Shown: positions 10,915 through 46,390, numbered from the stretch's first letter. The stretch: 50,980 bases of DNA from Candidatus Eiseniibacteriota bacterium (GCA_043809585.1 JBDROZ010000036.1:1-50980); one strand, 5' to 3'. Notes: a model not told the origin generated them from the letters alone. Numbers and translations: made by a program.

Positions 10915-12972
10915 TCAGGCCGTCCGCTGCTGGAAGAGCGATCTCCCGTTCATCTGCTGCGGTTTGGGGATCCCGAAGAAATCGAGGATGGTGACCGGCA
11001 GGTCCCAGATGTTCGCCTGCCCCTCGGGGAGGTTCTTGCTCGCGAAGAGGGAGCCCGGGATCAGGTCCTTCGCCATCGAGTGGTCGCCGGACCAGGCCCA
11101 CGGGTTCAGGTCGATGATCGCCTTGCCCGTCTCGCCGAGGACCGACGGGGACGAGCACCGGTAGCCGGGCGTGTACCCGACGAGCATCTCCGGCATGATC
11201 GGCGTCGAATCGCCCGAGTACATCTCCTCCTTGCGGTAGACCCGGTGCACGGGCCGGATGCCCGTCTCCGGATCCTCGATCCTCTCGAGTTCGCGGCTGA
11301 TCCGGGCGACCAACTCTTCCGCCTTCGGGCCGTCGATGATGCCCTGGCCCTCGCGGCCCTTCCGGTTGATGTAGAGGCCGTTGAAGCCGATGCCGTAGGC
11401 GGCGGTGGCGCTCCAGTCGACGTCGAGGATCGTGGTCTCCTCTTTGAGCGCCGCATTCCCCTCCAGCGTCAGGTAACCGTTCTCCCGGAGCCACGTGTTC
11501 AGGTGGAACTGGCGCCCGAACTGGGCGAAGCCGTGGTCGGAGCAGATGAGAAGGAGCGTGTTGTCGTCCACCGCGGGGAGAACCTTGCCGACGAGCTTGT
11601 CCATCTTCTCATAGAGGTGATGGATGTAGCCGGCGAAGCGGACGTCGCTCCGGTCGTGCATCGGATGGGTCTTGTCCATGTTCCGCCAGAGCATGTGCGC
11701 GTCCTGGTCGGTGTTGGAAACGTAAAAGTAGAGCATGCCCGACTCAAAGCGCTCCCACTCGTAGTCGAAGATCGCGAGGCGCTCCTCGAGGAGCAGCTCC
11801 GCCTGGGCGACGTAGGCCTCGTCATCGATGACCCGGTAGTCGAAGGCCTTCGTGTCCGCCGGCAGGCCCTTCGTCCAGAAGGGGCCGATCGCCCGGGCGA
11901 GGTCCTCGCCGTAGCTCTTGGGGTACGTGACCGGCATCGCCTGGTTGCCCGGGTCGATGTTGATCGGCGTGACGTACACCTTGATGTGGGGGTGCACTTC
12001 CTTGACGTAGAAGCGGGCGATACCCGAGACCGTGCTGATCACCGGCATCATCTCGAAGTTCACCGGCACCCAGTCGCTGTACTCCCCCTTCTTGAGGAGA
12101 ATGCTCTTCTCGTCCACGTCGATGCGTACCGAGTCCCGGCTCGGGTCGCGGTAGATCCGCACCGGCACCTTGGCGTAGTTGACGACCTTGTCCCGCTTGT
12201 CGTCCTTCGGCTTTTTCATCGAGTTGAGGGGGCCGGGGAGGAAGGTCTCCGCGGCGTGGTTCTTCACTTCCACGTAGTGGATGTTGCCGCCCGAGACGTT
12301 CGGGTAGTCCTCGAAGGTGTCCGAAGTGTAGTAGTTGAACATGCCGTACGAATCGACCAGGTCGGGGGTGCCCATACCGCTGATGGCGCGGGTGGCGGTC
12401 TCGTCGACGGGGAAGTTCGTCGGGATCTTGACGACCACCAACGGGATGCCCGCCTCGGTCAGGTAAGACCAGAAGGGGGTTCCCTTGCGGAGGTTCCGGA
12501 CGTCGCCCCCCTGGAGGGGGATCTGCCAGTCGCCGAGGGAGAGCTTGCGGCCCACGTCATCCGCCTCGTAGATGGAGAAGACGGGCATGTAGGTCTTCGG
12601 GTCCCGGGCGATGAAGTCGGCGATGCCGTGGCCCCCCGGATTGAGGCCGGTGATGAAGCTCGACCAGGCCACCGGGGAGAGGGCGGGCATGGTGGTCCCG
12701 AGAGAGCGAAAAGTTCCCATCTCCTTTAATTTCTTGAAGTTGGGCGCGCGCCCCATGTCGATGAGCGCCTGCACCATGTTCGGATCGAGGCCGTCGAGGC
12801 CGAGGACGATCACCTTCTTCGCCGTTGCAGACTTGGTGGAGGTGCAGGAAGCCAAGGGGAGTCCCATGGCGCCCACGGCCAGGCCGCCCGCTGTGGCTCG
12901 AAGGAAGTTCCGGCGGGAGACCCTCCGCGCCGCCGCCGCGTCCAATCGGCGATCCTGTCGTCCGTCTGTCAT
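10915..12972 (-). CDS. Alkaline phosphatase family / type I phosphodiesterase-nucleotide pyrophosphatase, Tat-exported lipoprotein
   Basis: SRRNFLR twin-arginine motif with lipobox LASC; VLGLDGLD, PALSPVAWSSFITG, DQDAH, SDHGF and SGDH. Confidence 0.88.
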   Translation of the reverse strand: MTDGRQDRRLDAAAARRVSRRNFLRATAGGLAVGAMGLPLASCTSTKSATAKKVIVLGLDGLDPNMVQALIDMGRAPNFKKLKEMGTFRSLGTTMPALSPVAWSSFITGLNPGGHGIADFIARDPKTYMPVFSIYEADDVGRKLSLGDWQIPLQGGDVRNLRKGTPFWSYLTEAGIPLVVVKIPTNFPVDETATRAISGMGTPDLVDSYGMFNYYTSDTFEDYPNVSGGNIHYVEVKNHAAETFLPGPLNSMKKPKDDKRDKVVNYAKVPVRIYRDPSRDSVRIDVDEKSILLKKGEYSDWVPVNFEMMPVISTVSGIARFYVKEVHPHIKVYVTPINIDPGNQAMPVTYPKSYGEDLARAIGPFWTKGLPADTKAFDYRVIDDEAYVAQAELLLEERLAIFDYEWERFESGMLYFYVSNTDQDAHMLWRNMDKTHPMHDRSDVRFAGYIHHLYEKMDKLVGKVLPAVDDNTLLLICSDHGFAQFGRQFHLNTWLRENGYLTLEGNAALKEETTILDVDWSATAAYGIGFNGLYINRKGREGQGIIDGPKAEELVARISRELERIEDPETGIRPVHRVYRKEEMYSGDSTPIMPEMLVGYTPGYRCSSPSVLGETGKAIIDLNPWAWSGDHSMAKDLIPGSLFASKNLPEGQANIWDLPVTILDFFGIPKPQQMNGRSLFQQRTA

Positions 12973-13281
12973 AATTGATTACCCATCAGTGAGTTGCGGC
13001 CAATCGCGCACTTTCTCCGCCCATCGTCGCTCTCTCTACCCTATCTTATATAGAATCGGAATACCTTCCCGGGAACGTTACACAATAACATAAGAAGAAA
13101 GAGCATTTCGGTCGACCCCTCGCCCTCCGGGGGACCCGGGGGGACATCTTCGATGATCCCCGAAGCCGGGGACGGCCACCGGCGTCATTCCCCCAAAAAA
13201 GACGGCGGAACCTCCTTCGGGCTTCCGTTGTTGAAAGGGGCAGGAACTCGGCCCGCGGCATCCCTCGAACCAGGACCGGCA

Positions 13282-13719
13282 ATGAGCGCACGGCTTCTCA
13301 TTCCCCGGAATCAGGACCGTCCCCGTGCGGGCAAGGTCGTGCGCTTCGCCCGCCGGCTCTGGCGGTTGGACGACCGGGCCTTCGTCCATCTCGCTTTGAT
13401 CGCCTTTCTCCTTCCCATGCCGGTCGCGAACCTCCGGGCCTTCACCGTGCGGGTCATGGTACCGGTCGCTCCGCGGGCGGCGACGTGCTGCGCTCCGTGC
13501 GCTTCCGATGAGGAGGCGGCCACGCCGGTGTCCCGGGGCTGCACGACCGCTCCGGCCTGCTTGCTCTGTTTCTTCCTCGGCGAAGGGTATCTTTTCGACT
13601 CGGGGAGTCCGGTTTGGTCCGACGGCATCACGCCTCTCGGCCGGGTCGCGAAGTGCGACACGATCCCGCCCGCCTCTCTTCATGCCCGTCCCCCCGTTCC
13701 CCCTCCGCGGGCGGTCTGA
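13282..13719 (+). CDS. Cys-containing leader-like protein with Pro-rich C-terminus (DUF2946/CutF-like; start uncertain 13282 or 13339)
   Basis: Hydrophobic segment VHLALIAFLLPMPVA; CCAPC and CTTAPACLLC motifs; ends ARPPVPPPRAV*. Confidence 0.55.
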   Translation: MSARLLIPRNQDRPRAGKVVRFARRLWRLDDRAFVHLALIAFLLPMPVANLRAFTVRVMVPVAPRAATCCAPCASDEEAATPVSRGCTTAPACLLCFFLGEGYLFDSGSPVWSDGITPLGRVAKCDTIPPASLHARPPVPPPRAV

Positions 13720-14025: not shown

Positions 14026-14991
14026 TCAGCGGATGAGCACGAGTTTCTCCGTCGCCCGGCGGAGGTCGGTACGAAGCACCGAGAAGTAGACGCCCGAGGG
14101 GAGAGGGTTCCCCCCGTCGTCCAGGCCGTTCCAGACGACCGATTTCCCGCCGCCCGTCTCCTCGCCGCTCACGAGGCTCCGCACGCGCCTCCCGCGAACA
14201 TCGTGGATGTCGATACTCACGTGGCCCCCGGGTCCGGGGATCTCGTACTCGATGGTCGTCAGCGGATTGAACGGGTTGGGCATCGCCCGGAGATCGAAGG
14301 CGACGGCCGGAAGCGCCGCGCCCACGCCCGTCGGCGTTCCGGGCCCGCCCATCTGGAAGCGGTCGGTTCCCGTCGTCGATCCGGCCAACCCGTCGAGCGG
14401 GCTTCCGGGGGCCCCCGTGAAGTCGATCCGGTAGGTGATGTCGAAGAAGCTGTCCACGGCGAAGTCCCCGCTCGGGAGTTCGGTGAGCGTCGTCACCCCG
14501 GGAGCGGGCAGACTGAAGTGCGTCCCCGTCAGGACCTGCAGGTAGTCGAAATCCGGATCGCCGAGAACCTCGCCGACCATGGCGAAGATCAGGGCCTCGA
14601 ATTCCTGCACCGGATCTCCCGGCACGCGGGGCGCCGTGTGAAACTCGACGATCACCGGAAGCGCGATCAAACGCTCGAAGCCCGTCAGGTCTCCGGTTCC
14701 CGTCATGACCAGGTGAAGGAGGGCGCCGCACTGCTGGATCTCCCCGTCCAGGAGACCACCGTCCCACCGGAGGATGTTGGCGAAGTCTCCGAGCCTCCCC
14801 TCGATGTCGATCGTCGTCCCCGGCGGCAGCCCGTCGAGGATCTGCATCGGCCCCTCGTACCCTCCCGGGCACTGGGGGGGGAGGTCGATGGTGCCGGTCC
14901 CGTTGTCGGGGAGGGCGCAGGGCAAGGCGAGGGTCGCGGGGACGATGAGAGCCGAGCCGAGAATGGCGGCGAGAAGCGTGCGAGTGAACAT
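14026..14991 (-). CDS. Secreted protein with C-terminal FlgD-Ig/T9SS-CTD-like domain
   Basis: Start MFTRTLLAAIL (SD GGGAG); C-terminal PNPFNPLTTIEY...VRGRRVRSLV...WNGLDDGG..LPSGVYF...KLVLIR. Confidence 0.85.
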   Translation of the reverse strand: MFTRTLLAAILGSALIVPATLALPCALPDNGTGTIDLPPQCPGGYEGPMQILDGLPPGTTIDIEGRLGDFANILRWDGGLLDGEIQQCGALLHLVMTGTGDLTGFERLIALPVIVEFHTAPRVPGDPVQEFEALIFAMVGEVLGDPDFDYLQVLTGTHFSLPAPGVTTLTELPSGDFAVDSFFDITYRIDFTGAPGSPLDGLAGSTTGTDRFQMGGPGTPTGVGAALPAVAFDLRAMPNPFNPLTTIEYEIPGPGGHVSIDIHDVRGRRVRSLVSGEETGGGKSVVWNGLDDGGNPLPSGVYFSVLRTDLRRATEKLVLIR

Positions 14992-15280
14992 CGTTTCGCT
15001 CCCATGTTCGGGTTGAACCGACGAAGCACGAACCGGGAAAGCGTTGCCGGCCACCCGTGCTGAGGCATAGAAAATACTCTAATACAGTCTCATTATACCA
15101 TGGCGAACGGCATGGGAGCCAATGGACCCGCGAAACTTGAATCTGTTCTGTGGCAACAAGTTACCGTATGAGCACCATCTTCGCCGCCGCCCGCCCCCGG
15201 TCGGTCCTGAGCAGGGAGAAATAGACCACTACGATCGTGTCTCAACCTCGATTCCATGAGACTGCCGCCACGGAAAGGTC

Positions 15281-18172
15281 TCACTCCGGCGGCAGCTGGG
15301 GCATCTTGATGCCGAACTTCTTCAGCTTGTAGCGGAGAAGCTGGCGTGAGATGCCGAGGATCTCCGCCGCCGTGCCGGGGCTGCCGCCGCTCTCCCGGAC
15401 CGCCTCCTTGATGCGGTCCTCCTCGAACTCGGCGACCGCCCGGAGGAGTCGATGCTGGGGGGGGCGGCGCTTGATTGCTCCGGACCGCACGACCCGCGAA
15501 AGATCGGCCGGCCCGATCGCCCGCCCGGCGGGCAGGAGCGCGATCGCCCGGCGGATCTCGTTCTGCAGCTCCCGCACGTTCCCCGGCCACGGGTGTCTCG
15601 CGAGAAGTCTCACCGCTTCCGGCGTGATGCCATCGACGGTCTTCCGCTCTTCTGCGGCGCACATCTTGACGAAGTGCTCGGCGAGGAGGGGAATGTCCCC
15701 CGGCCGGTCCCGTAGCGGGGGCACCTGGACGCGGATCACGTGCAGCCGGTAGAAGAGGTCGCCCCGGAACCGTCCCCGGTCGACTTCCGCCTCGAGGTCC
15801 CGGTGGGTTGCCGCCACGACGCGCACATCGATCTCCCGGTCCTCCGCCTCGCCGACCCGTTTCATTCGTCCTTCCTCGATCACCCGGAGGAGCCGGATCT
15901 GCACGGCGCTCGAGAAGTCGCCCACCTCGTCGAGGAAAAGCGTCCCCCCCCGGGCCCGTTCGAAAAGGCCTTCCTTGTCCGCCACGGCGCCGGTGAAGGA
16001 GCCGCGGGCGTGGCCGAAGAGTTCGCTTTCGAGGAGGGTCTCGGGGAACTCGGCGCAGTGGACGTGAACGAAGCGGCCCGCCCGGCCCCGGTCGCCCATC
16101 TCGTGGAGGAGCCTCGCGAGGAGGCCCTTGCCCGTCCCGGTCTCCCCCTCGATCAGCACCGTGGCGGGGGAGTTGCGGACCGAAGCGATCCGGTCGACCA
16201 GATCCTGCATGACCCGGCTCCCCGCGATGATGCGGGGGTGCGTTCGCGAAGAGGCCTCCGGCCTCACCGACGGGACCCTTCGGAGAAGCGCCTTCCCCCG
16301 GGCGGTGAACTCGCCCGCCTCCTTCTCGCTGAACGGGTCGGCGCCGATCCGCCGTTCCACATAGAGAAGGGATCCCTCCGCGTCGTCCGGGCGGAACGCG
16401 AGGTAAGGTCCGTGACATTCCTCCGGCCCGCCGGTGGTCCGCCCGGCGGAGACGATCAGGCGGCGGTCGTCCGTGTCTCGGAGGCGTTGGAAAACCGGTG
16501 CGGCCGACTCGGCGCCGGCGCCGACGAGGCGGTTCCCCTCGGGGGCGCCGGGAAGGTGAAGGAAGGCGATCTTCGCGCCGAGACGGCGCCCGAGGGCGCG
16601 CACCGACGGCTCGATCCCGCACTCCTCTTCGCCGAGGAGAACGGGGCCTTCCTTCTCGAGGGCGATTCGGGCGGTCTCCATCTCGAGATCGGCCCGAAGG
16701 CGCTCGATCTCTCGGAAAGCGACGACGGGATGAAAGGGGCGCAACCCGTCCTCCGCGTCCCGGAGGAGACGAAGGCACTCGTGGGGTGTGATCGTCCCCT
16801 GCAGGGCGCGCACCCCTTCGACGAGAAGAAACCCCCGGCGGCGGCCGAGGTCGAGGTCCCGGAAGATCGCGGCGGCTCTGTCGAAGTCCCGCAGGCTCCG
16901 GCGCCGCTCCTCCCGGGTGCGCCGGGGGGCCGCGGCCCTCTGCCTCGCACGCTCGGCAAAGGAGAGGGCGAGCTCGAAGCGGGCGCCCACATCTCCCAAT
17001 ATCCGAAGGCTCTTCTTCAGCGACGCCTCGGCGGATTGAATTCGCCCGCCGCTCGCGAACAAGAGCCGCGCCTTGACGCGATGGAGAATGCCCTCCTCCC
17101 GCCGGTCGCCGATCTTCTCGGCCAGACCGAGGGATGCCTCCAGTTCCCGCCGCGACTCCGCGAATTCCCCCCGCTCCAGATGCCACTCCGCCAGACGGCG
17201 GCCGATTTCGCAAACCACGTCCCCTTCCGGCGCGATCCGGAGCCCGATCTCCATTCCCTTCCTATAGAGGGTTCCCGCTTCCTTCCCGTCCCCCGCCGCC
17301 CGGTCCAGATCGCCGAGAAACTCGTACCCCAGCGCCTCCTCCCGCGGGAACCCGACCTCCACCGCCATCTCCAGACCCTTCCGGAGGTGCTTCCGCGCGC
17401 TCGTGAAATCCTCGAGGAAGAGATACGTCCGGCCGAGGGAGAGGTGGGAGGTAATTACAGTTCGTTGACGATGGGACCTATTCGCCCGTTTGAAGGCCTC
17501 TTTGAACCGGACAAGTGAACTCTGAAACTCACCAAGCCAAAAGGCAATATGTCCACTTCCCTGGTACCAATCGGCGACACTAGACAAGTTCTCTGCAACA
17601 CCCACCCGAATCGCCTTATCAACAGATACCATTGCAGAGGCAAGATCTCCGCGATTCTTGTGTGCCAGAGAAAGATTGTGGAGTGAGTGGCCTTCGGCCC
17701 ATTTGTCTCCGAAGTGACTTGCGAAAGCTGCAACTTGGCTGCATACCTCCTTGGCTCGCTCGTAGTCCCCGAATCTCAGCAGCAAGCTCTGGTATGTCAC
17801 CATAGGCGGGAGGGCTTCACGCGAGACAGATTGGCAGCTCCTTTTAAGAACCAGGTCAACGTAGGAGAGAGCGATTTCATAATTCCCAAGACGATGGTGG
17901 ACCCTGGCTAACAGATGAGCGGCTGAGAAGAGATGAGCATTAGGCAGATTCGGAGACTCTAAGTCAAGACCCGCAACCTCGTCGAGAGCAGACTGATACT
18001 CACCAAGGATGGCATAGCACCATCCTGAGAGAATCTGAGACTCCATAGTGGGTGAGGCATCGGTAGTCGGAAGTGTCTCAAGGAGACCACGGATCTCCAA
18101 GGAGGACCTGGCGCTTTCCGGCGCAAGAGGCTGACGGCTCAGCTCTCGAATTCTGCTCCAGGTATCCGACAT
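15281..18172 (-). CDS. Sigma54-dependent transcriptional activator (bEBP) with N-terminal TPR region and C-terminal Fis-type HTH
   Basis: Walker A GETGTGK, ESELFGHARGSFTGA, LFLDEVG, FRGDLFYRL, WPGNVREL and AAEILGISR. About 500 aa of TPR-like helical repeats at the N-terminus, with no REC domain. Confidence 0.92.
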   Translation of the reverse strand: MSDTWSRIRELSRQPLAPESARSSLEIRGLLETLPTTDASPTMESQILSGWCYAILGEYQSALDEVAGLDLESPNLPNAHLFSAAHLLARVHHRLGNYEIALSYVDLVLKRSCQSVSREALPPMVTYQSLLLRFGDYERAKEVCSQVAAFASHFGDKWAEGHSLHNLSLAHKNRGDLASAMVSVDKAIRVGVAENLSSVADWYQGSGHIAFWLGEFQSSLVRFKEAFKRANRSHRQRTVITSHLSLGRTYLFLEDFTSARKHLRKGLEMAVEVGFPREEALGYEFLGDLDRAAGDGKEAGTLYRKGMEIGLRIAPEGDVVCEIGRRLAEWHLERGEFAESRRELEASLGLAEKIGDRREEGILHRVKARLLFASGGRIQSAEASLKKSLRILGDVGARFELALSFAERARQRAAAPRRTREERRRSLRDFDRAAAIFRDLDLGRRRGFLLVEGVRALQGTITPHECLRLLRDAEDGLRPFHPVVAFREIERLRADLEMETARIALEKEGPVLLGEEECGIEPSVRALGRRLGAKIAFLHLPGAPEGNRLVGAGAESAAPVFQRLRDTDDRRLIVSAGRTTGGPEECHGPYLAFRPDDAEGSLLYVERRIGADPFSEKEAGEFTARGKALLRRVPSVRPEASSRTHPRIIAGSRVMQDLVDRIASVRNSPATVLIEGETGTGKGLLARLLHEMGDRGRAGRFVHVHCAEFPETLLESELFGHARGSFTGAVADKEGLFERARGGTLFLDEVGDFSSAVQIRLLRVIEEGRMKRVGEAEDREIDVRVVAATHRDLEAEVDRGRFRGDLFYRLHVIRVQVPPLRDRPGDIPLLAEHFVKMCAAEERKTVDGITPEAVRLLARHPWPGNVRELQNEIRRAIALLPAGRAIGPADLSRVVRSGAIKRRPPQHRLLRAVAEFEEDRIKEAVRESGGSPGTAAEILGISRQLLRYKLKKFGIKMPQLPPE

Positions 18173-18190
18173 CGCATTCCTTGTAATGTC

Positions 18191-18463
18191 CTACAAGAAC
18201 AACTGCGTCTTGAAGAGGACATCGATAACAAGTCGGAGGCTGGTTAGGAGTTCGGGTTGCCCAAACGTGTGTCCTCCGCCTTCAATATCGCCAGGAGTAT
18301 CCGGATCCCCATCAATCGGCTTTTCCTGTGCATCCTGCGCCGGCAGGAACCGGTCATACCCGTGCGCGACGGAGGGCAAGAAGATACCGACACCGAAAGT
18401 GAGGATCAGGAAGATCGAAACGATCGCGGAGACGGAACGATTGAGATTACCGATCGGGGCCAC
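18191..18463 (-). CDS. Small secreted peptide/protein (90 aa) upstream of the TPR-bEBP
   Basis: Strong SD AAGGAAGGAG before GTG; signal peptide ending VAHG; acidic GDPDTPGD core; hydrophobic C-terminal tail. Stops 18 nt before the bEBP ATG. Confidence 0.7.
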   Translation of the reverse strand: MAPIGNLNRSVSAIVSIFLILTFGVGIFLPSVAHGYDRFLPAQDAQEKPIDGDPDTPGDIEGGGHTFGQPELLTSLRLVIDVLFKTQLFL

Positions 18464-19143
18464 GGTACTACTCCTTCCTTGCGAGTGGAGAGGGAAAATC
18501 TTTTTCCCCTACAACGATTGACTGCTTACGTAGTTACCGTAGCAGCAACCGCACCACCCTGCAAGAAAACCGCGACTTCAGCCCCCGAATCCACGGGTGC
18601 TCCGAAATGGGAAAAGCAGCCGGAAAACGAACGAAAACGGACACTTCCGGCCCCGAAAGTCCACGGACTCCGGGCATCCGTGCCGATGCGGAATCGGCCG
18701 GAGCGCCGTGATTCCAAGGGGTTAAGAAATCTCGCCCGGGGAGGACCCTTGGAGCCGTTCCATTCCGGGATAAAGAAACCCCCCGAGGTCCCGAGGGCCG
18801 GGGAAAAATCTTTCCCGCGCCAACGTCCGGCGACCCCTGAGTTTCGGTCCCGCTCTTGGATTCTACCGACCAGCTCCGGCAGGAGAGAACCGGCGATGCA
18901 TCGAGCCCAAAACACCAATCATCGCGCACGCCGGTCCTTCCGATCCGCAACGAAATCCTATCACGCAACCTCATGAAATGTCAACCGATGATGACCATGC
19001 TGTGAAGGTCGTGTACAGAGAAGAGAAGAAACCGGCCCCGATCCCCCGGCTCCCGCCCGCCGAATTCAGGGCCGCAGTTTCTGCAAGATCGAGGCTCGAG
19101 ACCGTAGGAACCTGGTTCCCTTTTCTTGCCCGGCGCGGATTTC

Positions 19144-19326
19144 CTAGAATCGGTTTCACAACCTCCTTCGTCGCGAGATCGAGCGAAAGGTTCGGCGGCA
19201 AGGATCAAGGGGAAAAACGCCCGGAGGTGGCCTAAGAAGGCCATTGAGGACGTTTTTACCCGAGTACGCAACCGCCGGGCCTTGCAGCCGATCGCAGTCG
19301 AATGGAGGTTGTGAAACCGGTTCGAG
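19144..19326. mobile_element. MITE-like element, copy B (inverted relative to copy A)
   Basis: Reverse complement of 50-232 with about 5 mismatches. Identity continues through 19327-19375, which equals the reverse complement of 1-49. Confidence 0.85.
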
Positions 19327-19464
19327 TTTCGAGCCGGCGCGCCAACTTACGTCCGCCCGCCATCGCCGGCCGCACCGCGCCCGTTCATCCCCCGGCCGGC
19401 AGAGTTCATTCTTTCGATGTGTTTCCCGTCTGGGAGCGCCCTCGCACGAAATGGAGGAACAGCC

Positions 19465-21189
19465 ATGAACCACCGCGAGATCCCGATTCTGATTTCGCTC
19501 ATCCTGCTCCTCGCCGCCGGGGCGGGCGCGAACCCGCTGCCCGAACCGGTCCCGACCTGGTACGCCATGCCCCCTTTCGCGGCGCCGGGGGAACCGATCG
19601 CCCTCGCGCTCTGGAACACCACATTCGAGACGATCGAAGTCCCGAATACGGCGCCGTGGCGCATCCTGGATCCGGACAGCAACATCGTCGCGAGTCCGGG
19701 GTTCTCCTTCCCGATGATCGTTCCCGTCCCCCCGGGGGGCTTTCTCACGTGGGGATGGAACGCCTACGGCGACGACGGCGAACCGATCGATCCGGGCGAC
19801 TACGACGCGATGGTGCCGTGGCACTACGACTACGACACGGTCTGGCATGATCTGAGAACGCCGGTCCGCATCATCGGCCACCCGGCGTGGAACACCGAGC
19901 CGGTGATCATCTTCCAGAGCGATCCGGCCGATCTCTACTTCCGGAATCTGTCGGACCAGGAGTACACCTTCCCCGTCACCTCACCCTGGAGAATCACGGA
20001 TCTCTCCGGAACGGGCGTCTATTGGCCCGTTTCTCTACCCATGCCGGATACCGTCCTTCCCGGAGAATGGCGGCATTGGTCGATGGACCCGGAGTTCGTC
20101 TGGCCTTCTCCCGGGACCTACGTCGGGGTGATCGAGTTTACCGACGAGGGCTTCGAGCATGTGGAGAAACACGACCCCTTCGCCGTGGTCGACAGCGTGG
20201 AGGGGGGCGTCGTCTGGATGGTGGAGCCCCTCGTGAACGGCACGAGGAGCGCCGTCACCCTGACCCTGACCAACGCGACGGCGGACACCGTCTTCCTTCC
20301 CGACCTCGGCCCGTGGTGGATCGAACATGCGGACACCCTCGTCTACGCGCCGGCGTCGGTTCTGATGATCTGGCCCGTGCCGCCGGGCGGCTCCATGGCC
20401 TGGTCGTGGGACGAGAAGGACTACCTCGAGAACTGGGTCGACGCCGGGGTCTACCGGGCTTCGGTCACGTACTCCCCCACCCGGGACCCCTGGGACGGAA
20501 TCCGGATGGACTTCGACTTCACCCTCGTCGACGTCGATCCCTCAGGTCCCTGCCTCTTCCTCGACCCGGAGCAACCCTCCTACTGCCAGGGCCAGACCGT
20601 GCGGTGGACATTCACGAACTGCGCCCCCGATACGATCGGCATGCTCGGACAGCACACGTGGTGGGTGACGGACCAGTACGGAACCCCCGTGTACATTCCG
20701 ATCGTGCTCTGGGCCCTCGACCGTTTCGCCCCCATGGAGACGGAGACCTTCGCCTGGGATCAGATCGACCTAAGCGGCGACTTGGTGGAGCCGGGGACGT
20801 ACTACGGGTGGGCGACGTTCACGGACAAGCTCTATCTCACGAGGCACACGGTCGTCTCGCCTCCGGTCACCATCGAGCCGTGCACCGGCGTGGAAGAGGG
20901 GCCGCCGCCCTTCCGGACGGTCTCGAGCTACCCGAACCCGTTCAATCCTTCGACGACAATCCGATTCGTCACGGCCGAGACCGGACCGGTGCGGCTCACG
21001 CTTGTCGATCCGGCCGGGCGCCACGTGCGCACCCTGGTGGACGCCGTTCTTCCTTCCCGTCCGGAGGGGCACGAGGCGGCCTGGGACGGGCGGGACAACG
21101 CCGGGCGCCCGGCGCCGAGCGGGATCTACTTCTACCGCCTCGAGGCCGCGGGGGAAACGCACACCGGAAAGTTGACCCTGATCCGCTAG
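19465..21189 (+). CDS. Secreted protein with four tandem Ig-like repeats and C-terminal FlgD-Ig/CTD domain
   Basis: SD GGAGG; signal peptide; 4 repeats of N....I......W.I.D..G..VY.P......PG....W.W...D..G..V.PG.Y; C-terminal YPNPFNPSTTIRF...WDGRD..G.PAPSGIYFYRL. Confidence 0.85.
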   Translation: MNHREIPILISLILLLAAGAGANPLPEPVPTWYAMPPFAAPGEPIALALWNTTFETIEVPNTAPWRILDPDSNIVASPGFSFPMIVPVPPGGFLTWGWNAYGDDGEPIDPGDYDAMVPWHYDYDTVWHDLRTPVRIIGHPAWNTEPVIIFQSDPADLYFRNLSDQEYTFPVTSPWRITDLSGTGVYWPVSLPMPDTVLPGEWRHWSMDPEFVWPSPGTYVGVIEFTDEGFEHVEKHDPFAVVDSVEGGVVWMVEPLVNGTRSAVTLTLTNATADTVFLPDLGPWWIEHADTLVYAPASVLMIWPVPPGGSMAWSWDEKDYLENWVDAGVYRASVTYSPTRDPWDGIRMDFDFTLVDVDPSGPCLFLDPEQPSYCQGQTVRWTFTNCAPDTIGMLGQHTWWVTDQYGTPVYIPIVLWALDRFAPMETETFAWDQIDLSGDLVEPGTYYGWATFTDKLYLTRHTVVSPPVTIEPCTGVEEGPPPFRTVSSYPNPFNPSTTIRFVTAETGPVRLTLVDPAGRHVRTLVDAVLPSRPEGHEAAWDGRDNAGRPAPSGIYFYRLEAAGETHTGKLTLIR

Positions 21190-21368: not shown

Positions 21369-24300
21369 GTGCCACGGGCCGTCATCCCGATCATCCCGGC
21401 GAAACTCACTACGCCCCCCGTACCGGCCTCGTGCGTCCCCCGTCCCCGCCTCGACCGCCTTCGGGAGGGTTGGACGGGGCGCCGGTTGGTCCTCGTCACC
21501 GCGGGCGCCGGGTTCGGAAAGACCACCTTCCTCGCCGAACACGCCCGCGCCTCGGCCCGTCCCGTGGTCTGGTACACGCCGGACGAGATGGACGCCGGCG
21601 TCGCCGCCTTCGGCGCCCATCTCTGCCACGGCCTCGGTTGCGGGGGAAGGGGCCGGGAGGCCTCGGTGGACGGGAGGGACCCGGACCAGCTCCTTGCCCG
21701 CCTCGCCCGCGCCCTCCGGGAGGCCGAATCGGATGTGACCCTCGTGATCGACGACTTCCATCTCGTCGCCGGCGCGCCGGGGATCGACCGGTTCGTGGAG
21801 TGGCTGGCCCGCTACTTCCCCCCCGGGGGCACGCTCATCCTCTCCTCGAGAGAGGCGCCCACCATCTCCACGATGAAGTTGCGCTCCCTCGGCCAGGTGG
21901 CGGAAGTGGGCGCTTCGGACCTCCGCTTCACCGAAGAGGAGACCGCCGCGCTCTTCCGCCGGCGCTTCGACGGCGCCGAGATCGACCTCGAACTTTGCCG
22001 GCGAGTGACGGCGCGCACCGAAGGATGGGCCGCCGGCCTCGCCATCTTCTTCCAGGTCCTCGACTCGCCGGCGCCCCACCGGGTGGAGGAAGCCCTCTCG
22101 TCGATGAGCGCCGCCGGTTCCGGCTGGTTCTCCTATTTCACCGAAGAGGTCCTCCGGAGGCTCGACGATGAAACCCGGGAATTCCTCCTCGGCACTTCCC
22201 TTCTCCCCCGGCTCGAGCCCGCCCTCTGCGACCGGGTGCTCGGAATCGACGGGAGCGGGAAGGTTCTGGAGCGCCTCGCATCCCGGAATCTCTTCACCTT
22301 CAGGTCCGAGGGAGGGGGAAACGCCTACCGATACCATCACCTCTTCCGGGAGTTTCTCCGGGACCGGCTCGAACGGTCATGGGACGGGGCGGCAATCGGC
22401 CGGCGGCTGAAACTCGCGGCCACCGCCCTCGAAGAGAACGGGGCTTTCGCCGAGGCGGTTGTGGCGTGGGCCGAGGCGGGCCGGAACGACCAGGCCCTCC
22501 GGCTCGTGGAGAAGCTCGGGGAGGACCTCCTCGCCGCCGGCCGGTTCGAGGTGATCCGCCGCGCCCTGGAGCGCATGCCCCCCGGACTCCTCGACGAACA
22601 CCCGGCGGCGCTCCTCGTGCTCGGCCGGGCGACGGAGATTCCGGGGCGGGGCGAGGAAGCGGAGAAGATCTACCGCCGGGCCCTCCGGCGCGCCGACGCG
22701 GGCCCTCTCCGGATCGAGCTGATGGCGCTCATCGCGCAGAACCTCCAACGCCGGGGGGAGCACCGGAAGTGCACGACCCTCTGCCAAAAAGCCCTCGGCG
22801 AACCGCGTCCCATCCCGGCGCGCACCCGGGGACGGCTGCTCAACATGCTCGGCATATCGGCCTGCGAACTCGGCCGCCTCGACGAAGCGGAAGCGTATCT
22901 CGAAGAAGCCACGCTGCTTCTCCGGCGGAGCGGCGAACGGGACATCCCCACCTTCTATCTGCTGCCGGGGAACATCCACTACCGGCGCGGCGATTTCCAG
23001 AGGGCGAAGGAGGCCGCGCGCCGGGCGCTCCTCGAGTTCAAGAAAAGGAAGGACCGCCGCCGCTTCTGCCACAGCCTCGGAGTGCTCGCCCATGTGACCG
23101 CCGAGGCGTGCGAGGTTCGGGAGGCTCGGGCCCTCGCCGGGGAAGTGCTGCGCCTCGCGGAGGCCCTCGACTATCCCCTGATGCAGGGCTACGGCCACAT
23201 GGCCCTCGGCCGCTGTCTCCGCGTCGAGGGCGATCTCCGGGGGGCGCGGGAGTGTTTCGAGGCGGCCCAGGGGATCGGCGAACGCGTGGGTGAGACGGGA
23301 CTCCGAACGATCCCCGCGAACCGGCTCGCCGATATCGCCCTCCGGGAGGGCAACCGGCCGCGGGCCGCCCGCCTCGCCGGGCTCGCCCTGGAAGAGGCGG
23401 TCGCCGCCGGAGAGATTTACGAAGAGGTGGAGAGTTGCCTGCTCCTCGGAGACCTCCGGGCCCGGACGAGACCGGCCGAAGGGGAGAGATGGCGGGCCCG
23501 GGCGGAGAAGATCATCCGGCGCGTCGGAATGAACTTCGAGCTTCACCGCCTCCTCCTCGGCCGCCTCGATTCCGGCAGACTCTCCGACGACGAAGCCCGG
23601 GCCGCCCTCGAGGAACTCCTCACGGGCGCCGCAGCCCTCGGCCACGACTTCCTCTTCCTCTCCCTCGAGCAGGAACGATCCATTCCCGTGCTCGCCCGGG
23701 CCGTCCGAGAGGGGGTGGAGCCCGAATACGCCTCCCGACTTCTCGGGGCGATCGGAGAACCCGCGGTCCCCTCCCTCACGCCCCTCGCGACGCACGCGGA
23801 TGAAGAGACGAGGACCAGGACGATTCACCTCCTCACCCGGATCGGGGGAAACGAGGCGTGGCGGGTTCTCGCCCGCGCGGCGGAAGGGGGTTCCTCGGAC
23901 GCTCGGGAGGCGCGGGCGGCGATGGAGGAGATCGGGGCCACCCCCCGCTCCCCCCTCCGGATCTACGCACTCGGCCCCCTCCGCGTCGAAGGGGGGGGGC
24001 GGTGTCTCGAATTGGGCGACTGGAAATCGGCCCGCGCCCTCCGGCTCTTCCAGCTCCTTCTCGTACACCGCTTCCGGTGGGTCCCCCGGGACCAATTGAT
24101 CGAGACGCTCTGGCCGGACGGCGACCCGGCGAAGGGGACCAACAACTTCCGCCAGACGATCCACTTGCTCCGCCGCGTCCTCCGCTCCGGCGGGGAAGAC
24201 GCGAAGAGTTCCCCGTACATTCTCGTGCACAACGAATCGTGCCGCCTCGAAGCGGGCGAAGGGGCCCGCTACGACGTGGCCGAGTTCGAAGAGACGATCC

Positions 24301-24722
24301 GGCTCGCCGAGGAATCGCGGCGATCCTCGGTGCCGGAAGAGGCGAACCGGCTCCTCCGGCGGGCGATCGAGATCTACCGGGGTCCCTTCCTCGCCGAATC
24401 CCCGTACGAGGAATTCGCCGCCGACGACCGGGAGCGCCTGCGGGATCTCTTCCTCCGCGGTCTCGAACGCCTCGTCTCCACGTTGTTCGAGGAAACCCGA
24501 TGGGAGGAAGCCGCGGCCTATGCGAGGAGGGGTCTCGCCGAAGACCCGTACGAGGAGGAGTTCCACTTCCACCTCGCGGCGGCCCACGAGCGGCTCGGCC
24601 ACAAGCAGGAAGCCCTCGCGGCGTATCACCGTTATGAGGAGATGATGATTCGGGAGCTCGACCTGCTCCCCTCGGAACGGATGAAGAAACTGGCCGACCG
24701 GATCGTTCGTCTGGGGGGATAG
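21369..24722 (+). CDS. MalT-like STAND ATPase transcriptional regulator with TPR region and C-terminal OmpR-wHTH/BTAD (SARP) domain
   Basis: AKLTTP...PRPRL, Walker A AGAGFGKTT, VIDDFH, TEGWAAGL, YRYHHLFREFL; then IYALGPLRV, LIETLWP, YRGPFL, DPYEE and ELDLLPS. Confidence 0.88.
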   Translation: MPRAVIPIIPAKLTTPPVPASCVPRPRLDRLREGWTGRRLVLVTAGAGFGKTTFLAEHARASARPVVWYTPDEMDAGVAAFGAHLCHGLGCGGRGREASVDGRDPDQLLARLARALREAESDVTLVIDDFHLVAGAPGIDRFVEWLARYFPPGGTLILSSREAPTISTMKLRSLGQVAEVGASDLRFTEEETAALFRRRFDGAEIDLELCRRVTARTEGWAAGLAIFFQVLDSPAPHRVEEALSSMSAAGSGWFSYFTEEVLRRLDDETREFLLGTSLLPRLEPALCDRVLGIDGSGKVLERLASRNLFTFRSEGGGNAYRYHHLFREFLRDRLERSWDGAAIGRRLKLAATALEENGAFAEAVVAWAEAGRNDQALRLVEKLGEDLLAAGRFEVIRRALERMPPGLLDEHPAALLVLGRATEIPGRGEEAEKIYRRALRRADAGPLRIELMALIAQNLQRRGEHRKCTTLCQKALGEPRPIPARTRGRLLNMLGISACELGRLDEAEAYLEEATLLLRRSGERDIPTFYLLPGNIHYRRGDFQRAKEAARRALLEFKKRKDRRRFCHSLGVLAHVTAEACEVREARALAGEVLRLAEALDYPLMQGYGHMALGRCLRVEGDLRGARECFEAAQGIGERVGETGLRTIPANRLADIALREGNRPRAARLAGLALEEAVAAGEIYEEVESCLLLGDLRARTRPAEGERWRARAEKIIRRVGMNFELHRLLLGRLDSGRLSDDEARAALEELLTGAAALGHDFLFLSLEQERSIPVLARAVREGVEPEYASRLLGAIGEPAVPSLTPLATHADEETRTRTIHLLTRIGGNEAWRVLARAAEGGSSDAREARAAMEEIGATPRSPLRIYALGPLRVEGGGRCLELGDWKSARALRLFQLLLVHRFRWVPRDQLIETLWPDGDPAKGTNNFRQTIHLLRRVLRSGGEDAKSSPYILVHNESCRLEAGEGARYDVAEFEETIRLAEESRRSSVPEEANRLLRRAIEIYRGPFLAESPYEEFAADDRERLRDLFLRGLERLVSTLFEETRWEEAAAYARRGLAEDPYEEEFHFHLAAAHERLGHKQEALAAYHRYEEMMIRELDLLPSERMKKLADRIVRLGG

Positions 24723-24785: not shown

Positions 24786-26048
24786 CTACTCCGCGACTGC
24801 CTCGCCCGGCTCCAGAATATGGGGCGTGATCAGCGTGATCAGCTCGCTCTTCGACTTCGCGATCACCGTGCTCCCGAAGAGGTTTCCGAGAATCGGGATG
24901 CGGCGGAGTACCGGAATCCCTTTTCGGTTCTCCTCCTCCCTCTCCCGGATCAGCCCGCCGATCAGAAGCGTGTGCCCGTCCTTCACCAGGACTTCCGTGC
25001 TCACCTCGGTCGTCGTCTTCGAGGGGAGCCCCTCTTCGACGACGCCGTCCGAAAGCTCCGGATGGATCTTCATCAAGATGTAGCCGTCGTCCGTGATGAT
25101 CGGAGTGATTCTGAGCTGGGCCCCCGTGTCGAGGAACTGTACCGACTGGATCACCGTGTTCTCCACGGTGGTCACCACCGAGAACCCGAGCTGGCCGCCG
25201 ATGATGATCTCCGCCTGCCGCCCGTCGATGGCGAGAAGCCGCGGCGCGGCGAGAGAATTCAGCTCGTCCACGCCTTCCAGTCCTTGGAGGGCGGCCGTGA
25301 AGTCCCCTTCCCCCCAGGTCATGAAGAGCCCCTCGGTCCCCGAGTTGGCGGGGGCCGCGAAGCCCTCGACCACCATGTCCCCCTCCCCGGCGCCGTGGGA
25401 GAAGAAGAGGGACCAATCGATCCCGAATCGGGAGTCCTTCGACATCCGGGCCTCGATGATCCGCGCCTCGATGAGCACCTGCCTCGGCGCCCGGTCGAGC
25501 TCCCGGACCACCTGGTCGATCCGGGCGAGCACGTCCGGCCGGTCCTCGACGATGATCGTCCGGAGCGCCGCGTACGACGACGCCTGGCCGATCGGCGAGA
25601 GCATGTTCTGCACCACCGAACGCACGTCCTCCGGATAGGCGTAGTTGCACCGGTACGTGTAGACTTCCTTCAGGGAAAGGACCTGGACGTCCTGCTCCCC
25701 GGCGGGGCGGTGGATGTAGTAGATGTCCCCCTTCCGCACGACCTGGTAGCCGGCCATGGAGACCACGGCGTGGAGCGCGTCCTCGAAGGGCACGCCGTCG
25801 ATCTCGATCGAAACCCGGCCCGTCACCTCGCCGCCGCTCACGATGTTGACCTTCTGGCTGCGGGCGAACATGGCGAGGACTTCGCGGATGTCGATGTCCT
25901 GTGCCGAGAGCGTGATCGTTCCGGGTCCCTCACCGGACGCCGGCGGGTCGCCGCCGGAGGGGGCGGGCGCCGAGCCGATCAGCAGGGCGACCGCGATCAG
26001 GACGAGCCCTAAGCGGGCGCCGGACGCCCGTCGATGTCGAGTCCTCAT
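24786..26048 (-). CDS. Type II/III secretin (PilQ/GspD-like), short form
   Basis: IDIREVL..FA, QVLIEARIIE, APRLLAIDGRQA.I.IG, DTG..LRITP, VKDG.T..IGGL, GIPVL..IPILG.LF and ELI.LITP.I. Confidence 0.92.
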   Translation of the reverse strand: MRTRHRRASGARLGLVLIAVALLIGSAPAPSGGDPPASGEGPGTITLSAQDIDIREVLAMFARSQKVNIVSGGEVTGRVSIEIDGVPFEDALHAVVSMAGYQVVRKGDIYYIHRPAGEQDVQVLSLKEVYTYRCNYAYPEDVRSVVQNMLSPIGQASSYAALRTIIVEDRPDVLARIDQVVRELDRAPRQVLIEARIIEARMSKDSRFGIDWSLFFSHGAGEGDMVVEGFAAPANSGTEGLFMTWGEGDFTAALQGLEGVDELNSLAAPRLLAIDGRQAEIIIGGQLGFSVVTTVENTVIQSVQFLDTGAQLRITPIITDDGYILMKIHPELSDGVVEEGLPSKTTTEVSTEVLVKDGHTLLIGGLIREREEENRKGIPVLRRIPILGNLFGSTVIAKSKSELITLITPHILEPGEAVAE

Positions 26049-26584
26049 GACTTTCCTCCAGGACGAAGGGCGAGCAAGGATCCGTCCTTCTCGAGAATGA
26101 CCCCGTCCGCCACGATTCGAACAACCCGGTAACCGTTCACCTCGTCCCCTTCGCCGACGGCCCGGCCGCTCAGGACCGCCATCGGCGCGCCGGTTCCGAC
26201 GAACACGGCCGAGAGCTTGGGGGCCTCCGCCCGGGGCGCGGCCCGTGTCGGCGCGGGCGCCTTTTTCAAGGTCGGCAACTTCAGTTCTTTCGAAGGGGCG
26301 AAGAGGTCCCTTTCGAGCCGGCTCCGGCCGCTCGAAGCGAAGATCGTTTCAGCGGCGCCGGCCTCGCCGCCGAAGGACGGGGCCGCTCCCGACGAGTCCA
26401 TTTGGGAGAGGAGGGACAGGTACGCCTGCCGGGCGTCCGCCGCCGGGTTCTTCACGATCCGCCCCTCCCTGCCGGCCGGAACGAAGATCACCGCCAGCGC
26501 GGCGATCGCACCCGCCGCGGCGAGGAGGGCCGGCCGGTTTCCCAGCCTCCGCCAGATCGGTCCGTCGGGCGTTCCTGCGACCAT
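26045..26584 (-). CDS. Pilus/T2SS assembly protein (GspC/PilP/MshK-like)
   Basis: TM helix, RDLF, Pro-rich linker and LSAVF.G...MAVLSG..V.EGD.VNGY.V..I....V.L; lies between pilO and the secretin. Confidence 0.65.
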   Translation of the reverse strand: MVAGTPDGPIWRRLGNRPALLAAAGAIAALAVIFVPAGREGRIVKNPAADARQAYLSLLSQMDSSGAAPSFGGEAGAAETIFASSGRSRLERDLFAPSKELKLPTLKKAPAPTRAAPRAEAPKLSAVFVGTGAPMAVLSGRAVGEGDEVNGYRVVRIVADGVILEKDGSLLALRPGGKS

Positions 26585-26586
26585 CG

Positions 26587-27126
26587 TTACGCGCCGTCCT
26601 CCCGGGCGAAGAAGAGCGAGAGCGTCATCTCCGCCCGGCACTTGCCCTCCCGGTCCGATTCGATCTTCATCCGATCGATCCGGCAGAGACGGCTCCCGTG
26701 TTCCAATTCGATCAGCAAGTCGTAGACCGAGAGGAAAGGCCCCGTGACCCGCACCTCCACGGGCAGCTCCATGTAGAGCCGGTGCTCGACCGGCACCTTC
26801 GGAGTGAGCTTCTCGATTCGCGTTTCGGTCTCTCCGGCCGCCTTCCCCACGTATTCGAGAAAGCCGTCCAGGTTGACCGTTCGCGGAAGGAGCGCGCGGC
26901 TCTCGGCGATCTCCGTCTCCACGGAGCGAATCTCGCGATCCAGGCGGTCCACGCTTCCCTCGGCGTCGGCCAGGATCTCCACCGCGTCCCGGAACGCCCC
27001 GAGATCGCGCCGGGCCGCCATCAGGGGACGAACCGCCTGATGAAAGACGACGGCGGCGAAGACCGCGACGAGCAAGACCACCGTCACCCGTCCGACCGCG
27101 TCCACCCTTTCCGGATCGTGCCTCAC
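26587..27126 (-). CDS. pilO: Type 4a pilus biogenesis protein PilO-like
   Basis: N-terminal TM, coiled coil, LP, Y.ELPV.V.V.G.F...DLL..LE...RL; gene order M-N-O. Confidence 0.75.
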   Translation of the reverse strand: MRHDPERVDAVGRVTVVLLVAVFAAVVFHQAVRPLMAARRDLGAFRDAVEILADAEGSVDRLDREIRSVETEIAESRALLPRTVNLDGFLEYVGKAAGETETRIEKLTPKVPVEHRLYMELPVEVRVTGPFLSVYDLLIELEHGSRLCRIDRMKIESDREGKCRAEMTLSLFFAREDGA

Positions 27127-27145
27127 CCGATTCTCCCGGTGCGCC

Positions 27146-27751
27146 TCAAGGGCTCCCCGTCCCTGCCGTCAGCGTGCAGAAGATCTCGAACTCGACCCCC
27201 TCCGCCCGTTCACGGCCCGGCGTTTCGTCCACCGAAACCAAAGCCACTTCCTCGAAGCGGCCCGTGTCGAACATGCCCCGGATGATCCGCCCCACCTCGG
27301 GGTGGTCCGGCGCCGTCCCCCGGACCCGGAGGGTGGCGATGCACGGCGCCGATCCGAGACCCGTCCATCCCTTCGATCCCGCCTGGGCGCAGAGATCCAG
27401 GTCGAGCCGGGTCAGGAAACACTCTTCCGGGAGGCTCCCGCCGATCGCTTCGAGATGGGACCCCATGGTCGGCCCCCGCCGGATCGCCTGGATCGCCTGC
27501 CGGTGTTCGGAGAGCCGGTCCCGTTCGGCGATCAGGCTTTCCGCCTGCCGGAGCCGGTCCTGGAGGGTCGCGTATCGTCCGGACATCCGAACCAGCTCGG
27601 CGTTGCCCGACTCGGCCATGCGCACGAGACCGACGTAGAGCGCGGCCCCGGCGGCCGCCCCCAGGGCGAGCCGTCTCCCCCAGGCGCGAAGGCGGCGGCG
27701 CGCCTCGCGGCGCGTATGGGTTTCCTGGGGAATGAGGTCGATGGACGTCAC
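27146..27751 (-). CDS. pilN: PilN-domain protein
   Basis: GTG start overlapping the pilM stop; IDLIP motif (INLLP-like), TM, LP..C.L..L, L.VRG.A and F..V.L. Confidence 0.75.
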   Translation of the reverse strand: MTSIDLIPQETHTRREARRRLRAWGRRLALGAAAGAALYVGLVRMAESGNAELVRMSGRYATLQDRLRQAESLIAERDRLSEHRQAIQAIRRGPTMGSHLEAIGGSLPEECFLTRLDLDLCAQAGSKGWTGLGSAPCIATLRVRGTAPDHPEVGRIIRGMFDTGRFEEVALVSVDETPGRERAEGVEFEIFCTLTAGTGSP

Positions 27752-28842: not shown

Positions 28843-28894
28843 GGGTCTCCCCTGTTCCCGGGAACTCGAACCGAAGGTCCCCGCGCGCCCGTCC

Positions 28895-29413: not shown

Positions 29414-29487
29414 CGACTTGCTCCTCCTGTTTCCGGTCGCCCCAACCTCCCGGTTCCTGTTTCCGGTCGGAGGGTCCGCTCCGGGTG

Positions 29488-30663: not shown

Positions 30664-30860
30664 ATCTCTCCCTCCTCCGGAATATCGGACCGAACCGGCG
30701 AAGCCTTGAGTAGCCGGAAGAGGCCTAGCACATCGGACCTCAGGCCTTATGTGTTCCGCGGGGATTCGAGACTATCTTCACGACCATGCGCGACAACTCA
30801 TGCATATTCATTGGGTTGCAAAATGGTCGCGAAGAGAGACGGGGGCGGCCCGGGGCGTGA

Positions 30861-46207: not shown

Positions 46208-46390
46208 GGGGACGCCGTTTGACGATGGATGACCTCTCCAAGGGCAATTCCGGTAAGGAGTTGTCTGGTTCCGGGTGCCGGGCCGTGACCGGCGCCGGGG
46301 CGCTCCCCTTTCCTCCGGCTTCCGAACCCGGATCGAAGTCCAGATAGTCCGGAAGGACGTTCCGGCTCCCCATGGGAGAGGAGGCGATCA

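Follow-up and report, generated by a model that had tools for sequence, protein, structure and literature searches.

The 50,980-nt contig JBDROZ010000036.1 of Candidatus Eiseniibacteriota bacterium (GCA_043809585.1), a complete metagenomic contig of 66.7% GC that is referred to here as the window, carries on its minus strand a gene for a small secreted-type protein followed by the gene of a sigma-54-dependent transcriptional activator (Table 1). A stretch of about 0.88 kb and of markedly low GC content (17453 to about 18334) covers the 3' part of the former gene and the 5' part of the latter. We lean towards the view that this stretch is an allelic cassette that came from a lower-GC member of the same family by homologous recombination and that, in addition, would act as a specificity unit. 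That the locus is a real mosaic produced by recombination is likely; that the cassette constitutes a signal-receptor specificity unit is a tentative proposition, which may well prove wrong. We hypothesize, from sequence, that a sigma-54 activator carries a polymorphic cassette of signal plus sensor in the manner of pherotype loci; what is said of ligand, receptor and pherotypes is the conjectural portion. A sequence-only reading of the same DNA had placed the cassette at 17450-18340, near the limits estimated here.

The change in base composition is resolved best at the left junction. The lowest GC content of any 890-nt segment of the window is 0.526, in the segment starting at 17441 (mean of such segments 0.668, standard deviation (sd) 0.034), and that of any 300-nt segment is 0.503, starting at 17451. 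The sequence-only reading had described an abrupt fall in GC inside the activator gene, and the four 60-nt counts on which it relied (44/60, 31/60, 30/60 and 27/60) are exact; the fall itself reappears as a change point at codon 240 when GC at third codon positions (GC3) is followed. A single-change-point model applied to GC3 in the frame of the 963-codon gene sets the left break at this codon (window position 17452), with a two-log-likelihood-unit interval of codons 239-244 and a log-likelihood gain of 53.6. GC3 of the activator is 0.525 in the cassette part and 0.862 past codon 240, and GC at first codon positions (GC1) is lower in the cassette too (about 0.6 vs about 0.75). With respect to the host, GC3 of the cassette lies 6.4 sd under 1257 host windows of 240 codons (mean 0.857, sd 0.052), and its synonymous-codon log-odds of -0.334 is under the values of all 321 host windows (minimum -0.131, mean 0.375). 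An inspection of the open reading frames (ORFs) agrees with the earlier statement that they are unbroken across both junctions. The lowest-GC 60-nt stretch of the window is at 13041-13100 (0.35), between the gene at 10915-12978 (-) and the ORF at 13054-13719 (+).

The step in composition has a counterpart in the conservation of the activator. Relatives were sought in 5.8 billion proteins, with 84 hits among 8000 candidates scored; only five of these hits (P0002-P0006, 53-65% identity) are full-family relatives, and the named ones come from metagenome-assembled genomes (MAGs) of Eisenbacteria and Latescibacterota. Relatives were compared at the level of proteins, GC3 being a measurement of the window alone. 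In every comparable pair, identity amounts to 30-46% over residues 1-240 and rises to 69-84% over residues 241-400; the family alignment has many invariant columns in the conserved half of the tetratricopeptide repeat (TPR) region (aa 241-415). The N-terminal module of the window (N-module) aligns without large gaps to those of P0002 and P0006. A change-point analysis of identity was carried out on 10 pairs, the 5 pairs with P0005, which starts at residue ~228, being left out. In 7 of the 10 pairs the step lies within residues 235-262, with a log-likelihood ratio (LLR) of at least 12 for 6 of them, and the best one, for P0002-P0006, falls at residue 240 (range 235-243, LLR 49.5). The other three pairs all involve P0004, which has 71 N-terminal residues, and give weak steps at 202, 419 and 428 (LLR 4.3-6.2). 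The conservation step and the composition step coincide within a few codons. P0004 is also richer in lysine and in FYMINK residues, which suggests a lower-GC genome; the use of amino-acid composition as a proxy for the GC content of the relatives was dropped, since it cannot separate function from base composition. The DNA of the relatives was sought with a profile of activator residues 241-640 in genome contigs, where 66 matches were obtained and 2 were confirmed, both of them unrelated weak TPR loci (in a Prosthecobacter MAG and in a Gemmatimonadetes MAG).

A mosaic pair among the relatives marks the same position. P0005 (735 aa) and P0002 (966 aa) are identical at 718/718 residues from the leucine that matches window residue 244 to the C-terminus, and the preceding 17 residues of P0005 are unalignable to P0002. 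To P0003, however, the 17 residues can be aligned in frame, with 9/17 identical (the rest of P0003 is 74% identical to P0005), and because of this in-frame match they are taken as real coding sequence of another allele type and not as a frame artefact. The junction of the P0002/P0005 mosaic matches window residue 243/244. By our estimate, chance would place two independent breakpoints of a 963-codon gene no more than about 4 codons apart in less than 1% of cases.

The small protein gives a comparable picture. A HMMER search of 1.84 billion representatives (50%-identity library) returned 3 relatives besides itself, and a profile search of the 90% library returned 6 (P0086-P0091, 88-91 aa); judging by these relatives, the small ORF is a real, conserved gene. 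Its predicted signal peptide comprises aa 1-35, has a hydrophobic core at residues 14-28 (Kyte-Doolittle mean over 15 residues, KD(15), 2.67) and ends A-H-G in the window, followed by Y-D. In the 7 aligned sequences, A stands at -3 in 7/7 and A or G at -1, and a Y/F-D-x-x-L-P block follows. The layout, judged by eye, is that of Sec export, with n-region, hydrophobic core and A-x-[AG] site kept in 7/7. Residues 1-58 are kept among the relatives and include an acidic motif (usually DGDPDTPGD, about residues 50-58) in which G52, D53, P54, D55 and P57 are invariant in 7/7. Residues 59-90 are hypervariable, with an identity of 9-31% in 20 of the 21 pairs and of 59% in the window-P0089 pair, and these last ~32 residues end in a hydrophobic, partly amphipathic tail. 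"Mature peptide" is a label of the sequence-only reading, and cleavage is predicted from the sequence layout. Variability does not extend over the whole of the mature part: residues 59-90 are hypervariable, and the invariant GDPDxP motif also belongs to this part and lies inside the low-GC cassette.

Exchange within the small gene is suggested by its own mosaic pair. P0086 and P0090 are identical at 46/56 positions before residue 59 (28/34 over residues 1-35 and 18/22 over residues 36-58) and then at 5/32 over residues 59-90. P0088 and P0091 share 23/35, 16/22 and 7/32 residues over the same three segments; the window protein and P0089 are 66%, 65% and 59% identical. The variable part of the family starts at about residue 59, and the junction in the window lies upstream of it, at codons 39-46; the acidic motif would therefore be inside imported DNA in this genome. 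Taken together, the coincident conservation steps and the mosaic pairs P0002/P0005 and P0086/P0090 lend good support to the idea, advanced in the sequence-only reading, of recombination between conserved flanks. Its expectation of conserved signal-peptide and C-terminal flanks around a divergent middle agrees, at the protein level, with the relatives of both genes.

Pfam, NCBIfam and PADLOC hold no family for the small protein, and the ESM Atlas gave no feature hit for it. The Atlas model, with a predicted local distance difference test score (pLDDT) of 0.54, superposes on small proteins that combine a signal peptide with a sorting-type tail at the C-terminus, e.g., PID-CTERM; such an identity was not adopted. 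All six relatives (P0086-P0091) lie on contigs of 789-1804 nt, none of these lengths recurring among the contigs of the activator relatives; for contigs this short, assemblies may break at a polymorphic locus, or the source may have this effect.

At the right junction, the third positions again locate a boundary. A two-state GC3 likelihood sets it at codon 43 of the small ORF, the two-log-likelihood-unit set comprising codons 39-44 and 46 (about window 18326-18349). Models in which the small ORF is all cassette-like or all host-like are 5.7 and 14.8 log-likelihood units worse, respectively, and the codon log-odds is +0.22 over codons 2-43 and -0.19 over codons 44-90. The contrast between host-like signal-peptide codons and A/T-ending codons in the mature part, which had been noted before, is real but weaker than the left step (GC3 27/35 vs 32/55, Fisher p = 0.073).

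The activator shows the features of sigma-54 enhancer-binding proteins (bEBPs), namely an AAA+ domain with Walker A motif (GETGTGKG at residue 676) and GAFTGA-type loop (GSFTGA at residue 724) together with a Fis-type helix-turn-helix (HTH) domain (PF02954 HTH_8, 913-953, E 7.6e-9); Pfam also recognises AAA_lid_14. Its domains follow one another in the order variable TPR, conserved TPR, helical linker, GAF-like, AAA+ and HTH, and hydropathy reveals no membrane segment in it (maximum KD(19) 0.98). None of the NCBIfam equivalogs reaches its cut-off, the best being AtoC with 310 bits vs 714. An identity as PEP-CTERM-associated regulator was rejected (NCBIfam PEP_resp_reg, 288.7 bits vs a cut-off of 502.6). 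The small gene and the activator gene, on the same strand and 18 nt apart, look like one operon.

An AlphaFold2 prediction for residues 1-421 with five relatives gives a 21-helix TPR solenoid (pLDDT 88). Variable residues 1-240 are modelled as TPR helices (mean pLDDT of 10-residue blocks 67-97), the conserved half as helices 237-414, and the left junction would lie in or just past the loop 230-236, ahead of helix 237-252, between repeats. As modelled, the putatively imported N-module is a working, folded homologue of the N-module of the family. Its function aside, the locus offers a clean intragenic recombination junction at a TPR repeat boundary. The nearest solved structures are the TPRs of LGN/Pins (fold E 3e-10; sequence E 7e-12); no RRNPP receptor is found among the 13 PDB sequence matches, and by fold Rap of pLS20 ranks only 48-50. 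Residues 422-648 are predicted to form a helical linker and an alpha/beta domain (pLDDT 76.8), for which the best Foldseek matches, to GAF domains (DosS/DosT, phytochromes), are weak (E about 1e-3). A GAF-like domain beside AAA+ would be a possible second sensor module. A complex prediction for TPR residues 1-420 with small-protein residues 36-90 (score 0.01, mark 0.32) weighs neither way.

Of the marks of a mobile-element island, the locus shows atypical composition, and neither integrase, transposase, tRNA nor flanking repeats accompany it: the window has no tRNA genes, border repeats are absent from the junctions, and no plasmid match (tblastn) or phage match (blastn) was obtained. Silent cassettes or paralogues sought in the window with tblastn and blastn gave self matches only (next best E 0.051). 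For a segment that holds only two gene parts and is without mobile-element signs, homologous replacement fits better than insertion.

These findings allow us to propose a model. One crossover would have taken place beside the invariant HLSLGRTYL block of the activator (codon ~240) and the other in the conserved YDxxLP...KP block of the small gene (codon ~43), the resident allele being replaced by the ~0.88-kb allele of a lower-GC relative. The cassette brings together precisely the two family-hypervariable parts, namely the C-terminal tail encoded by the small gene and, in the activator, about the first six TPR repeats. The small protein would be exported and processed, and a fragment with the variable tail would return to the cytoplasm, where the variable TPR module would bind it in its groove. 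Binding would control AAA+ assembly and sigma-54-dependent transcription, and a cassette swap would change signal and receptor together, as in the comQXP, agr and PlcR-PapR pherotypes.

Replacement of a cassette with signal and receptor input is known from Gram-positive quorum sensing (comQXP, agr, PlcR-PapR). In staphylococcal agr, the variable region takes in a portion of the processing gene as well as the peptide gene and AgrC's sensor half, with conserved sequence on either side. The locus described here shares with agr the succession of conserved flank, variable signal plus sensor input, and conserved flank; it differs from agr, with its thiolactone peptide, AgrB protease and membrane kinase, in that none of these is present. 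LGN/Pins TPRs hold long extended peptides inside the superhelix. These closest solved TPRs (GPSM2) belong to eukaryotic polarity proteins and are 16-18% identical to the present ones, so the likeness is a structural analogy only. With NifA/FhlA/NorR-type bEBPs the activator has in common the AAA+ domain with GSFTGA, HTH_8 and a GAF-like domain just upstream, whereas the extra 415-aa TPR solenoid at its N-terminus sets it apart.

In ComQXPA of Bacillus subtilis, the polymorphic block comprises comQ, comX and the 5' part of comP, with conservation beyond (PMC6334282). The likeness is that the variable block covers a signal gene and the input end of a receptor, here the 3' part of the small gene and the first 240 receptor codons. 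In contrast, ComP is a membrane histidine kinase, ComX is isoprenylated by ComQ and the host is a Firmicute, while here a soluble TPR/GAF-like/AAA+ sigma-54 activator is encoded, no modifying enzyme is evident and signalling is a prediction from the genes. The pherotype-type layout, with variable signal gene and receptor input end between conserved flanks, is found in the proteins and in the composition of the window.

The RRNPP signature, as set out in PMC10075063, consists of a propeptide of 10-100 aa, Sec export, a receptor of 250-500 aa, TPRs and neighbouring genes. The present pair fits 4 of these 5 points, with its 90-aa propeptide, TPRs, neighbour at 18 nt and, by eye only, Sec export; the similarity of the TPR fold is generic and the phylum lies outside Firmicutes. 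In several RRNPP members the active peptide derives from the C-terminal part of the propeptide. The locus resembles RRNPP systems (Rap-Phr, NprR-NprX, PlcR-PapR, PrgX and AimR-AimP) in working principle and is not an RRNPP member.

Several observations weigh against the reading that we favour. As regards import, the donor was not found, the closest N-module among the 84 hits being about 38% identical, and no match to the N-module was present among 1178 shorter or partial protein candidates. The P0002/P0005 mosaic depends on the 17 residues that precede the junction, after a start that a gene caller chose, and is judged from proteins. The right junction is soft, as its Fisher p of 0.073 indicates, and segmentation on raw GC sets the right edge at 19272 (range 18534-19365), beyond the boundary drawn in the sequence-only reading. 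Raw GC cannot tell cassette from intergenic DNA, because the GC content of non-coding 18464-19416 (953 nt, 0.596) is ordinary for the window, inside the range of the other 7 putative non-coding stretches (0.554-0.708); since, besides, hydrophobicity forces A/T at codon positions 1 and 2 of the signal peptide (raw GC 0.581), third positions are the better guide to this junction. The N-modules of the relatives are poor in G/A/R/P (0.25-0.32 vs 0.32-0.45 in other segments, with the 14-residue stub of P0005 set aside) and gene callers cut the N-terminus in 3 records (P0001, P0004 and P0005), so that a shared, long-standing odd composition fits as well as recent import; the low GC may be peculiar to this genome or common to all alleles. 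The same traits, found in the N-modules of all relatives, and the missing donor speak for compositional drift in place, i.e., a hypervariable segment that has long been low in GC in every lineage, with no recent import, either because diverged alleles escape GC-biased gene conversion or selection or through fast diversification under AT-biased mutation. We consider this improbable, in that the synonymous step is large (0.34) and resolved to 6 codons, and drift would have to stop at a recombination boundary; further, two proteins such as P0002 and P0005, identical downstream and unrelated upstream, need exchange, and full-length N-termini were called normally in P0002 and P0006. Drift is partly compatible with allelic replacement, for long-lived alleles could also be exchanged. 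An assembly chimera, in which reads of a related lower-GC population were joined across two short shared stretches, would agree with the window being a metagenomic contig and with junctions that adjoin strongly conserved protein blocks; it would also agree with the short contigs (789-1804 nt) of the six small-protein relatives, although such contigs are also common in those sources for other reasons. It seems quite improbable to us: two in-frame switches 0.9 kb apart, back to the same genome, would be needed, genomes 0.34 apart in GC3 should rarely share exact k-mers even in conserved codons, and mosaics were seen in other data sets too (P0002/P0005 and P0086/P0090). Should the other population be a strain that shares these flanks, the polymorphism of the cassette would be real all the same. 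Selected codon usage, by which low GC at the 5' end tunes translation or mRNA structure with no exchange, finds some backing in the first 35 codons of two neighbouring secreted-protein genes, whose GC3 is also reduced (0.71 and 0.63). Effects of this kind usually span tens of codons, whereas the present drop extends over 240 + 47 codons, stops abruptly at a domain boundary and involves GC1 as well; they would leave the mosaic relatives unexplained, and we give this explanation hardly any credence.

The functional half of the favoured reading, in which the TPR module has the small protein as its ligand, meets further difficulties. Predictions put the variable tail outside the cell and the TPR region in the cytoplasm, and the ligand model would need a re-import route in a presumably diderm cell. 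The sigma-54 consensus TGGCAC-N5-TTGCW with up to 2 mismatches occurs 3 times in the window (chance mean 7.6), none of them within 13-22 kb, and near the locus there are only weak GG-N10-GC sites with 8/11 matches, e.g., at 18556 (-). The receptor has 963 aa, not 250-500, AAA+ and HTH_8 replace the effector domain of RRNPP, and no significant similarity to RRNPP receptors was detected (Pfam AimR, 19.2 bits, cut-off 26.7). A rather unlikely alternative, then, is that the cassette did recombine and the small protein is not the ligand, the TPR N-module binding something else, e.g., a protein partner, or acting together with the GAF-like domain; the product of the small gene would be an unrelated one, polymorphic and either secreted or membrane-associated, and co-variation would follow from adjacency in one exchanged segment. 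It would be in keeping with the opposite predicted locations of tail and TPR, with a second putative sensor (GAF-like) adjoining AAA+ and with the invariant acidic motif, the hydrophobic tail and the low-confidence resemblance of the small protein to sorting-type-tail proteins; in addition, the link between the small protein and the TPR region is itself read from sequence. Against it, the junctions match the conserved/variable limits of both proteins, in the window and in the mosaic pairs, as expected if the two parts must match, and the genes form a putative operon with an 18-nt gap, a layout equal to the RRNPP signature (PMC10075063).

Returning to the ligand model, the fullest form of it would be a peptide-pheromone system on the RRNPP principle outside Firmicutes, in an uncultured high-GC lineage, where an exported tail is sensed by the TPRs of a sigma-54 activator and the cassette is traded at two fixed junctions, giving rise to pherotypes. 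We advance it as a doubtful possibility. If true, co-replacement of such a cassette would also occur in an uncultured, presumably diderm phylum and on a sigma-54 AAA+ output, and the two fixed junctions together with the DGDPDxP propeptide would provide a sequence handle for peptide signalling where none is known. A search of the full-text literature, judged partly from titles and abstracts, found no account of a sigma-54 activator that carries TPRs and has a small secreted protein as its partner.

Table 1. Features of the small-gene/activator locus (window coordinates, or residues where so marked)
Feature	Position	Strand	Basis or remark
Sigma-54 activator (bEBP), 963 aa, predicted cytoplasmic	15281..18172	-	ORF and Pfam
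TPR solenoid of the activator	aa 1-415	-	Pfam TPR_12, E 7.7e-22
Variable N-terminal TPR module (codons 1-240), making up most of the cassette	17453..18172	-	GC 0.526, GC3 0.525
Left junction, codons 239-244, just ahead of invariant HLSLGRTYL (starts at residue 243)	17441..17458	-	
Conserved C-terminal half of the TPR solenoid, aa 241-415, putative left recombination flank	16928..17452	-	host-like GC3
GAF-like alpha/beta domain, about aa 520-632, conserved	16277..16615	-	unrecognised by Pfam
AAA+ sigma-54 interaction domain, aa 648-815	15728..16231	-	PF00158 Sigma54_activat, E 2.4e-62
Spacer from small-ORF stop to activator ATG, 18 nt	18173..18190	-	AAGGAA 6 nt before ATG
Small secreted-type protein, 90 aa	18191..18463	-	GTG start, AAGGAG 7 nt upstream
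Right junction, small-ORF codons 39-46, within the conserved YDxxLP...KP block	18326..18349	-	less secure than the left
Acidic motif of the small protein, aa 51-58, inside the cassette	18290..18313	-	A/T-ending codons
Hypervariable C-terminus of the small protein, 32 residues (aa 59-90), candidate specificity determinant	18194..18289	-	
Leader and promoter-like region, membership of the system uncertain	18464..18984	-	sigma-70-like site, two palindromes

The composition of the variable module also has consequences for annotation. The gene caller's record of the activator (P0001) has 695 aa and starts at M269; the 268 N-terminal residues, with the entire low-GC part, are lost, and P0001 would lack the variable module because of the composition of the latter. 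The records of P0004 and P0005 begin inside the N-module as well, so that truncation is systematic in the annotation of the family. A gene caller can thus drop a whole variable module of atypical composition.

Upstream of the small ORF, 953 nt (18464-19416) contain no convincing gene; beyond them, at 19417, a divergent gene follows. At 18984-18955 (-), a sigma-70-like site (TTGACA-18-TAGGAT, with TG) would give a leader of about 490 nt, in which two terminator-like hairpins are seen (18797-18780 and 18660-18643). Compared with shuffled sequences, this leader shows only slightly better folding (z -2.57), and there is no Rfam match in the whole window. Two GGGAAAA-N3-TTTTCCC-type palindromes, an exact copy and another that has 2 mismatches, are located at 18492-18508 and 18800-18816; matches to them are confined to this upstream region in the window (5 overlapping matches at 2 sites, chance mean 1.6), and from their sequence they are candidate regulator binding sites or RNA hairpins. 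No rpoN was seen in the window.

The genes that flank the locus, 14026-15054 (-) and 19417-21189 (+), encode secreted proteins ending in an FlgD_ig or type IX secretion system (T9SS)-type sorting-like domain, and both are possible targets of the activator. Next to the locus, 21369-24722 (+) encodes a second large TPR regulator, of 1117 aa, in which a MalT-like NTPase (213 bits with NCBIfam MalT, below cut-off) is combined with a C-terminal BTAD/SARP domain, and 24786-32600 (-) comprises a set of genes of type IV pilus or type II secretion system (T2SS) kind (secretin, PilO, T2SSF and T2SSE ATPase). Two large multihaem cytochrome genes with Cytochrome_C7 repeats occupy 46289-50979 (+), at the contig end.

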